From Phyllobates terribilis (taxonomy: Eukaryota), in assembly GCF_046119375.1 (NCBI RefSeq), contig NW_027362762.1:168392001-168456000 (forward strand): 64,000 bases of DNA, read 5' to 3'. The notes under the pieces are model-generated. The model was given only the letters and a program-made list of their open reading frames with translations, was not told the DNA's origin and did no database searches. Positions 10,063-11,892 of this stretch are shown in pieces (the stretch's first letter is position 1; every line of letters starts with the position of its first letter). The position numbers and the translations under genes were made by a program.

Positions 10063-11892
10063 TCAACGGCGTCTTCCTCCTGCTCTTTGCTTGTAGCTGG
10101 TTGTAGCTTCAGACCCGTCCGGGTCCTCTTGCTCCTCCTCCTCGCACCGCAACTCCTCCTCCGTCAGGCGGTGTACGTGGAGGGCGTAAGGTCCTTTGGC
10201 ACACTTGTGCCGGGTAAAGGTGACCTCGTCTCCGATGTAGAGGTCACGACCTCTGTGCCCCTCCGGCAGATGGGACTCCACGTCTCTGCGCGTGACAAAG
10301 ACGTCGCCTGGGGTGTTGTTGTCTCTGATGAAGCCCCACCCATGCTGCTGGTTGAACTTGATCACTGTCCCGATGGTGCGGGGACAATGCGCTGCACGGG
10401 GGTCCCTCCTGGTCCGGCTCTTCTGCTCGGCGCTCCTTATTTGGGCCTGTTGTTCCCGGACCCGCCTCTCTCTCCGCTCCCTCGCGAACTCTTCGAGCTG
10501 CTGTCGGCAACACTCAGCGCGCTCTGCTGCAGCTGCCCTGGTTTCCTGAGTGAACCCCATTAGGTCTTCTCCGGTGGGGTCCCACTCAAACTGTGCTTCC
10601 GCTAGCGGGGGCGAGACCCGTGCCACGGGCTTCGGAGCCGGAATCAGGGGTTCATCCAGGGGTCTTAGTCTCTGCTGCCGTTCCAGCTCATGGTATTCTT
10701 CGGGCCAGATGAAGGGCCGCCCGTCCGGCCATGTGAGCTGGCTGAACAAGTCCTCCCCCAGGTGTGGCACCCTTGGTTTTACGGGCGCGGGCGCGGTGGT
10801 GGTGGCGCCCGGGTTACCCAGGCCTTGCGGCCAGGCCTGGGGCACCTGGAAGGTGAAGGGCACCGTTAGGACGGCGGCGCCCTGGGCTACCTGGCCTTGC
10901 GGCCAGGCCGGAGGCTCCGCGGAGGTAGGGGGCGCTGTTGGTGATGCGGCGCCCGGGGGTACTAGGCCTTGCGACCAGGCTGGTGGTATTTCCTGCTTTG
11001 TCACGCTCCGGGTCGAGGCGCGTGACGTCACAGGGGTCGCTGCGGCGGCTTCCGGTCGGGGCCTAGTCCATAGCGGTGACATGGCGGCTACGGGCACAGC
11101 AGGGGGACTTTCGGGCTCTGCGACGGGGAGCTGGGGCAGGTGGGCGGTTTCCCGGCTTGGGGTATAGGCGTCCCCTTTACCTGCCTCCATGCGTTCGGCT
11201 CCCTTCTCGGCGCCGTCTTCAGCCTTTGGTCCTCCCGCGCCATCCTCAGAGGCGGTCTGTTTCCTCTTCCAGGGTAGCGTGCTCCGTTGACTGGTCTCAG
11301 CTTGCTGGGCCATCTCCCGGCTCCATTCCGCCAATATCTCGCGCTGTACCCGGGCCATCCTCCGTGCGAGGCCCTCCAGGGCAGTCTGTGCACACTCCCG
11401 GTCTCGGGGGAGCTGTGCAAGGACCTCCACTAGGCCTAGTGGGGTCGTGGTGTCTAGCAGGCTCCTGACCAACGGGTCGGTGCTGCTCTGCTCTTCTTCC
11501 AGCAGGCTCCTGGCCAGCGGGCCGGTGCTGCTCTGCTCTCCTTCCTCGGTCTTTAGCAGACTCCTGGCCAGCGGGCCGGTGCTGTTCTGCTTTCTCTCCA
11601 TATCCGGGTAAGCTCCTCCGCTACTCCTCGTTAGACCTCTTGCCTCCGGGTGCGCTCGCTCCAGACTGCTCCAGGCGGCACCCATCTTCGTTCTTTTCTT
11701 TCGTCTCCTCCCACTTCGAGGGCGGTCTCGGGGCAACTCGGTGACTGTCAGCTCCAGGGGTAGTTCTTTCACGCTGACAGACACCTCCAGCATCACAGTC
11801 TCTGTTGGTGGGGGCGGTTTCCACTTTTGGCGCCATTTTCTGTCCTGGCCCACGATGGGAGGCGGCCTCCTGCCCTCCTTTGGCACGCCCAT
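10063..11892 (-). CDS. 609-aa protein with C-terminal cold-shock domain (element 1)
   Basis: Part of the 702-aa ORF. The probable start is the Met of DAIM, which is conserved in all three elements; the upstream extension runs through PBS/LTR and is not conserved in frame. CSD at about 10165-10380: GTVIKFNQQHGWGFI..DVFVT..GDEVTF..GPYALHV. Confidence 0.85.
   Translation of the reverse strand: MGVPKEGRRPPPIVGQDRKWRQKWKPPPPTETVMLEVSVSVKELPLELTVTELPRDRPRSGRRRKKRTKMGAAWSSLERAHPEARGLTRSSGGAYPDMERKQNSTGPLARSLLKTEEGEQSSTGPLARSLLEEEQSSTDPLVRSLLDTTTPLGLVEVLAQLPRDRECAQTALEGLARRMARVQREILAEWSREMAQQAETSQRSTLPWKRKQTASEDGAGGPKAEDGAEKGAERMEAGKGDAYTPSRETAHLPQLPVAEPESPPAVPVAAMSPLWTRPRPEAAAATPVTSRASTRSVTKQEIPPAWSQGLVPPGAASPTAPPTSAEPPAWPQGQVAQGAAVLTVPFTFQVPQAWPQGLGNPGATTTAPAPVKPRVPHLGEDLFSQLTWPDGRPFIWPEEYHELERQQRLRPLDEPLIPAPKPVARVSPPLAEAQFEWDPTGEDLMGFTQETRAAAAERAECCRQQLEEFARERRERRVREQQAQIRSAEQKSRTRRDPRAAHCPRTIGTVIKFNQQHGWGFIRDNNTPGDVFVTRRDVESHLPEGHRGRDLYIGDEVTFTRHKCAKGPYALHVHRLTEEELRCEEEEQEDPDGSEATTSYKQRAGGRRR

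Follow-up and report, generated by a model that had tools for sequence, protein, structure and literature searches.

A window of 64,000 nucleotides from the genome of Phyllobates terribilis (the whole stretch of DNA analysed here) holds a young non-autonomous Ty3/gypsy-type LTR element (element 1) that carries no pol and encodes a protein with a cold-shock domain (CSD) at its end, and this domain is kept under strong purifying selection in copies spread through the genome. On balance we think it somewhat probable that the CSD binds RNA, with the element's own transcript as its main target, and aids the element's use of the Gag and Pol of a helper element. More tentatively, poison-frog genomes may contain a class of satellite LTR elements in which gag-pol has been replaced by a captured CSD serving as a cis-acting hijacking protein. 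If that is true, the hijacking CSD would mark its own RNA for helper particles, which would be a vertebrate counterpart of the phage satellites, and a satellite class encoding its own parasitism factor would make up approximately 1% of a 10-Gb genome.

Table 1. Features of element 1, and the CSDs of elements 2 and 3, by position in the window.
Feature	Position	Strand	Remarks
Element 1 ORF	10063..11892	-	609 aa, from the first ATG common to copies
Cold-shock domain (CSD)	10165..10380	-	72 aa, residues 505-576 from the ATG at 11892
WDPTGEDLMGF motif and 45-residue Glu/Arg-rich helix	10405..10632	-	just before the CSD; conserved
Second predicted long helix	11284..11400	-	residues 165-203; dN/dS 0.18-0.27
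5' LTR	12152..13346	-	TG...CA; 1194/1195 bases identical to 3' LTR
3' LTR	8423..9617	-	
Primer-binding site (PBS)	12129..12147	-	matches host tRNA-Ser (AGA/TGA) 3' end; also in gag-pol element
Polypurine tract (PPT)	9618..9629	-	adjoins 3' LTR; gag-pol element version near-identical
Target-site duplication, left TATA	8419..8422	+	4 bp
Target-site duplication, right TATA	13347..13350	+	4 bp
9-nt direct repeat, upstream copy	10720..10728	-	border of recurrent ~600-nt deletion in other copies
9-nt direct repeat, downstream copy	10114..10122	-	
Element 2 CSD	23757..23972	-	in element 21977-26838; LTR identity 1236/1241; target-site duplication CTAC
Element 3 CSD	42511..42726	-	older, divergent; 35/72 aa identical to element 1

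Element 1 has a single open frame of 731 codons running from 12258, within which the first shared ATG lies at 11892; the true start is uncertain, as dN/dS is 0.6-0.8 across the first 60 codons. In the predicted full-length model 404 of the 609 residues have a pLDDT below 50, approximately two thirds of the protein being predicted as disordered, and the folded parts are two long helices and the CSD. Contigs from four runs cover the element, and contigs of this kind are uninformative on transcription. Among 20 fetched loci with the primer-site motif, five were tRNA-Ser genes, and the four loci tried earlier were all element copies. Each LTR contains a further match of 11 nt to the tRNA-Ser 3' end (12315-12325 and 8586-8596), which also occurs in elements 2 and 3 and in the LTR of the helper. 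In the leader of element 1 (11915-12015) the motif GGCGGGAA occurs four times and A(A/G)ATGGCG twice; these motifs resemble E2F and YY1 sites.

An earlier note on this DNA had placed a CSD at 10165-10380, and the 72-residue minus-strand translation with its GWGFI, DVFV and GDEVTF motifs bears this out. Against the Pfam CSD profile (PF00313; gathering cut-off 27 bits) elements 1 and 2 score above the cut-off (34.4 and 31.7 bits) and element 3 below it (18.9 bits); a recount of the identity between the CSDs of elements 1 and 2 again gave 65 of 72 residues. The predicted model, built from a 13-sequence alignment, is a five-stranded OB-type barrel that follows the 45-residue helix (domain pLDDT 86-94) and compares with CspA at a TM of 0.87 (rmsd 2.1) and with the YB-1/YBX2 domains at a TM of 0.64-0.78. 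The Y-box likeness that had been proposed holds for score and loop length, since the family profile scores best on YBX1/2 (39-40 bits, against 34.7 for CspA and 17.9 for CARHSP1) and the loop after RNP2 aligns to the YB-1 loop with a single gap, but descent from a Y-box gene is no more than a candidate: AU tests on 73 columns reject neither a Y-box sister (p-AU 0.24) nor a CSDE1 sister (p-AU 0.36). In a domain tree built without LIN28 and CARHSP1 (44 rows, 73 columns) all 25 element-type domains lie on one side of a branch (98/96). The domain is a CSD by fold and does not appear to be a member of the Y-box family, and a Y-box gene would be its likeliest donor. The viral fold library matched only phage and giant-virus CSDs, the Atlas search gave generic CSD leads (all below 0.9) and no lead for the first helix, and word-index protein searches returned only two proteins.

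The same note had counted five synonymous changes against one I/V replacement in the 11 codons LYIGDEVTFTR and had read this as selection on the protein; the count is exact, and the conclusion now extends far beyond these codons. Across the whole CSD, elements 1 and 2 differ by 23 synonymous and 8 replacement changes (dN/dS 0.08). A larger sample, drawn by a non-coding motif and not by the CSD, gave 80 CSD matches, of which 78 were full length (two partial ones were dropped) and three of these contained a stop, leaving 75 stop-free copies. A codon model over the 75 copies gives an omega of 0.067 (lnL -3887.2, against -4461.8 with omega set to 1, a gap that is probably overstated because the same total tree length was kept). 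Pooled pairwise dN/dS is 0.05-0.12 in all distance bins and is still near 0.1 in the closest pairs. Thirty-three disjoint pairs, from 39 close pairs, show 198 synonymous versus 52 replacement changes (binomial P ~1e-72), and the five other frames give ratios of 2.2, 3.5, 2.2, 0.21 and 5.2 in close pairs, the 0.21 coming from the antisense frame that shares third positions; the strong signal is confined to the CSD frame. The best matches of a CSD search (148 of 150 identical in protein) were not used for dN/dS because such matches are chosen for low dN, and the set L031-L060 carries the same bias. Part of the low CSD dN/dS stems from a high dS, as pS between elements 1 and 2 is 0.43, above the divergence of their LTRs and 3' UTRs (0.14-0.16), while pN, at 0.049, is lower than either. 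A scan along the ORF drew on 36 of 52 copies that have no break between the ATG and the CSD, and on 201 of 630 pairs; the most constrained part is the CSD core, with a dN/dS of 0.05-0.07 in its two central 30-codon windows; values are 0.09-0.11 over codons 421-480 (the WDPTGEDLMGF motif and its helix), 0.18-0.27 in the first helix and 0.36-0.8 in the N-terminal and Pro/Ala-rich parts. The gag of the helper, at 0.17-0.29 (8 copies), is above the CSD.

The helper was reached through the primer site: the first 30 loci with this motif lead into gag in 14 cases and into the CSD ORF in 16. Gag-pol elements of approximately 7-8 kb were present in 12 of 16 ten-kb stretches (L211-L217, L219-L221, L224, L225), and none of the 12 contains the CSD, the only CSD matches in these stretches lying in two satellite copies, one neighbouring and one separate, which speaks against the CSD being part of a complete element. 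The one copy scanned encodes a PNMA-like gag with a CCHC knuckle followed by RT, RNase H and integrase, which is the gypsy order. Helper and CSD element have in common approximately 285 nt of LTR end, the primer site and approximately 60 nt of leader, at 75-78%, together with a near-identical PPT and LTR start, and differ in that the helper has gag-pol and no CSD. From the 75-78% likeness of the LTR ends we infer that the CSD element borrows the Gag and Pol of this helper. The possibility that the ORF is itself a diverged Gag was rejected, for it has no protein likeness to the helper gag (profile match 0.1%) and the predicted full-length model of the element 1 protein lacks a capsid fold.

In the 10.57-Gb genome the exact PPT/LTR junction pattern has 29,419 matches (control 2) and the exact PBS/LTR junction pattern 27,031 (control 0). 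The CSD is present in 80 of the first 90 PPT/LTR matches, which were sampled by position, all come from the initial 28 Mb of a single contig and are biased to young copies. The ten matches without it comprise six internal deletions, two chimeras with the 5' end of the helper, one copy that bears integrase and has a Tc1-like insert, and one in which no family sequence can be recognised. The chimeras (L104, L173) join the helper 5' gag leader to the last CSD strand and the 3' end of the CSD family, which suggests recombination between helper and CSD-element RNAs. Scaling 29,419 by 80/90 gives approximately 26,000 copies; with 4.9 kb per copy this is ~128 Mb, or ~1% of the genome, a rough figure that is built on exact matches only. 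A host-type RNA-binding domain is kept, in some 26,000 copies, under tighter constraint than the helper gag. LTR pairs were found in 39 of 40 further copies and differ by a median of 0.08%, whereas sampled copies are mostly 2-6% from their nearest sampled neighbour, so that the differences between copies arose in replicating lineages and not after insertion.

Copies that have lost the domain bear on where its benefit falls. A deletion of approximately 600 nt between the two 9-nt repeats takes out the motif, the helix and the CSD, and its junction has 751 matches against 15,028 for the intact junction (5% of matches); a splice product was ruled out, as the borders are the direct repeat and not splice sites. 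On a tree built from the 1100 nt upstream, the distribution of 29 deleted among 27 full copies requires 17 label changes, compared with 18.9 +/- 1.9 when shuffled, a test that covers 29 of the 751 copies and only subfamilies matching the patterns. Deleted copies match full ones in age (19 vs 20 copies, P=0.92), and most of them have their own target-site duplications. The deletion thus recurs in many subfamilies without radiating, as would be expected if the product mainly helps its own RNA, and the scatter hints at a benefit in cis. Two deleted copies that lie at separate sites share 99.6% identity, and another deleted copy is 98.6% identical to one of the two, so deleted forms may sometimes move. 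The fate of the deletion isolates neither a CSD effect nor a protein effect, since the motif and helix, and maybe an RNA signal, are lost as well.

In the cis-acting model the LTR would drive transcription of the element, translation of the ORF would follow, and the new protein would bind its own RNA via the CSD, using the retained Phe/Trp face together with Arg and His residues that do not vary, in a manner resembling the coating of mRNA by Y-box proteins. The coated RNA may be more stable or better placed at the sites of helper particle assembly, perhaps with the two long helices as scaffolds, and the helper enzymes would then copy it using the common primer site, PPT and LTR ends. CSD-less copies would be made constantly and would rarely found new lineages. 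Such a model, if true, would explain a passenger that matches its helper in number and would provide a handle on parasites of parasites in giant amphibian genomes.

A protein acting in trans, by binding helper RNA or host silencing factors or RNAs and so dampening the helper's own packaging or the host defence to the benefit of all family members, seems unlikely to us. One binding site could lie on both RNAs given their common leader and LTR end, the primer-site motif leads to the CSD family and to the helper about equally often (16 vs 14 of 30), and a near-identical deleted pair does exist; however, if the benefit were shared, CSD-less copies, being shorter, should spread and most lineages should see their ORF decay, whereas deleted junctions are instead infrequent and scattered and even the closest pairs retain a low dN/dS. 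We attach a lower probability again to the CSD being a nucleic-acid chaperone within the helper particle that handles ssDNA or the tRNA primer like an extra nucleocapsid. The YB-1 CSD binds ssDNA, according to the available text of PMC7498358, and a role within the particle would likewise be a cis effect and fit the selection pattern, but the helper gag has a CCHC zinc knuckle of its own, most of the 609-aa protein is predicted to be disordered and no Gag likeness was found.

Binding through the barrel itself was assessed by mapping YB-1 residues onto 78 copies through a CSD-YB-1 alignment, with F74, F85 and K118 as the contact residues given in the available text of PMC7498358. These positions are kept in 75, 76 and 74 of the 78 copies, respectively. 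D83, which we take to be a further binding residue of YB-1, is kept in 74. Two of the four YB-1 stacking residues are lost in all 78 copies: W65, the KWF Trp, is replaced by Lys (75) or Arg (3), and H87, the RNP2 His, by Thr (71), Ser (3), Asn (2) or Asp (2), in agreement with the missing KWF Trp and with the Thr, Thr and Asn reported for the three elements. The Trp reported in RNP1 likewise recurs, at the Y72 position, in 74 of 78, and two Arg follow directly after RNP2 in 77 and 76 copies. With two stacking residues lost and a Trp and Arg gained, specificity could be changed or binding weaker, and natural CSD variants without W65 and H87 are thereby available for the study of RNA recognition. 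CSD residue 46 (region of window 10246-10248) corresponds to the YB-1 phosphosite S102, and 74 of 78 copies have Asp there; replacing S102 by Asp (S102D) in YB-1 reduces the affinity for ssDNA more than 40-fold (PMC7498358, available text).

We give little credence to the reading that the barrel is kept as a protein-binding module and not as a nucleic-acid binder. It would account for the two lost stacking residues and for a most invariant stretch that consists of a family-specific loop and strand 4 (RDVE..L.EGH, TRH) and not of the RNP motifs alone, but the RNP1/RNP2 aromatics and the K118 position are retained, new Arg residues stand right after RNP2 and a sister family keeps the RNP2 His. 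That the low dN/dS is an artefact of mutation bias, an overlapping frame or similarity sampling, or reflects a domesticated host gene, is very improbable despite the raised pS, as replacement divergence is three times under the non-coding figure, sampling was by a non-coding motif, only the CSD frame gives the strong signal, and a single host gene would not account for young, dispersed insertions that have target-site duplications of their own.

A profile search against 1.84 billion representatives, from which ten matches were looked up, returned uncharacterised single-CSD relatives from Phyllobates (1), Ranitomeya (4) and Anomaloglossus (2), the tenth match being a multi-CSD outsider; the Phyllobates protein possibly comes from the same or a very close genome and was not counted as independent. 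The database protein P0005 (annotated as R3H and coiled-coil protein 1) starts with the helix and CSD of the element and is either a gene-model artefact or an exonised element. Two further CSD-bearing LTR families are present in the genome. The second family (L283-L290, L241-L250; for example G000:C8:301163000-301172999) is abundant; its LTRs, of approximately 1030 bp, are different, its tRNA-Ser primer site is the same, its target-site duplications are 4 bp long, and its one frame, of 819 aa, includes a divergent CSD. It has only the CSD in common with element 1 (35%), and its dN/dS is 0.27 (11 distinct copies). The third (L239, L240, L291; G000:C4:791.48-791.52 Mb) is rare, with three matches; its CSD, in which the RNP2 His is retained, has its best score against host YBX. 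In one copy the LTRs are 90% alike and the primer-site sequence is different, and a single pair gives a pN of 0.144 versus a pS of 0.189, with no clear signal of selection. It lies approximately 3 kb from DIRS-like frames in L227, but membership of a DIRS element was rejected and chance nesting is likely, since the sister copy L291 has its own LTR pair. Intronless retrocopy pieces at L235 and L236 (G000:C1:734.436-734.453 Mb), partly duplicated and interrupted by LINE-like sequence, are presumably CSDE1-like.

Non-autonomous LTR elements are usually non-coding or encode only Gag. Zebrafish BHIKHARI/crestin and chicken ENS-1/ERNI are likewise LTR elements with one ORF and no pol, but their ORFs are Gag and fold as such with a capsid (PMC12067270, available text), whereas the CSD element ORF is predicted to have no capsid fold; they are also ERV-type, with copies in the hundreds (Bik-2: 393 insertions). 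Among frogs, Xenopus 1A11 is a one-ORF, Gag-like LTR element without pol, whose 71 kDa product is near the size of the CSD-element ORF, and Xretpos is a one-ORF element without pol that is primed by tRNA-Arg (PMC4585706; PMC3337140). The available text on these two mentions no cold-shock domain, and a relationship to the CSD element is possible. YBX1/YBX2 (PDB 6ktc, 5yts, 7f3l) are the best single-domain match (E 2.4e-5) and resemble the element CSD in the long loop after RNP2 and in the F74, D83, F85 and K118 positions. They differ in that the CSD is only 32-34% identical, with W65 to K/R, H87 to T/S/N/D, Y72 to W and S102 to D, and in that the element domain is near the C-end, intronless and in a separate tree group; the human and zebrafish YB-1 CSDs, by comparison, are identical (PMC7498358, available text).

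LINE-1 ORF1p is an analogy in the way it works, with a disordered region and a long helix beside an RNA-binding domain that prefers the transcript encoding it, but the domain is an RRM and not a CSD and the element is an autonomous non-LTR one. No description of a CSD-encoding LTR element was found in the available text of the literature searched, and supplements or repeat libraries may list such families undescribed. The main texts of two poison-frog genome papers, which report that O. pumilio ova express gypsy elements, do not contain 'cold shock' or 'non-autonomous' in the parts available (PMC6278860; 10.1101/2023.11.06.565769).

Elsewhere in the window, element 3 spans approximately 40607-45156 and its LTRs are identical at 1238 of 1263 aligned bases. 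Positions 1-4910 correspond to 14246-19155 in a 14.2-kb tandem duplication, which is either recent or an assembly artefact, and a twin of element 1 that is 100% identical lies just upstream of the window (L238). The intervals 385-870, 36575-37681, 46325-46927, 48883-50593, 57740-59082 and 62100-63156 are ordinary repeats, namely LINE-type RT/endonuclease pieces, DDE_3 transposase pieces and tandem arrays of 51 bp and 31 bp.
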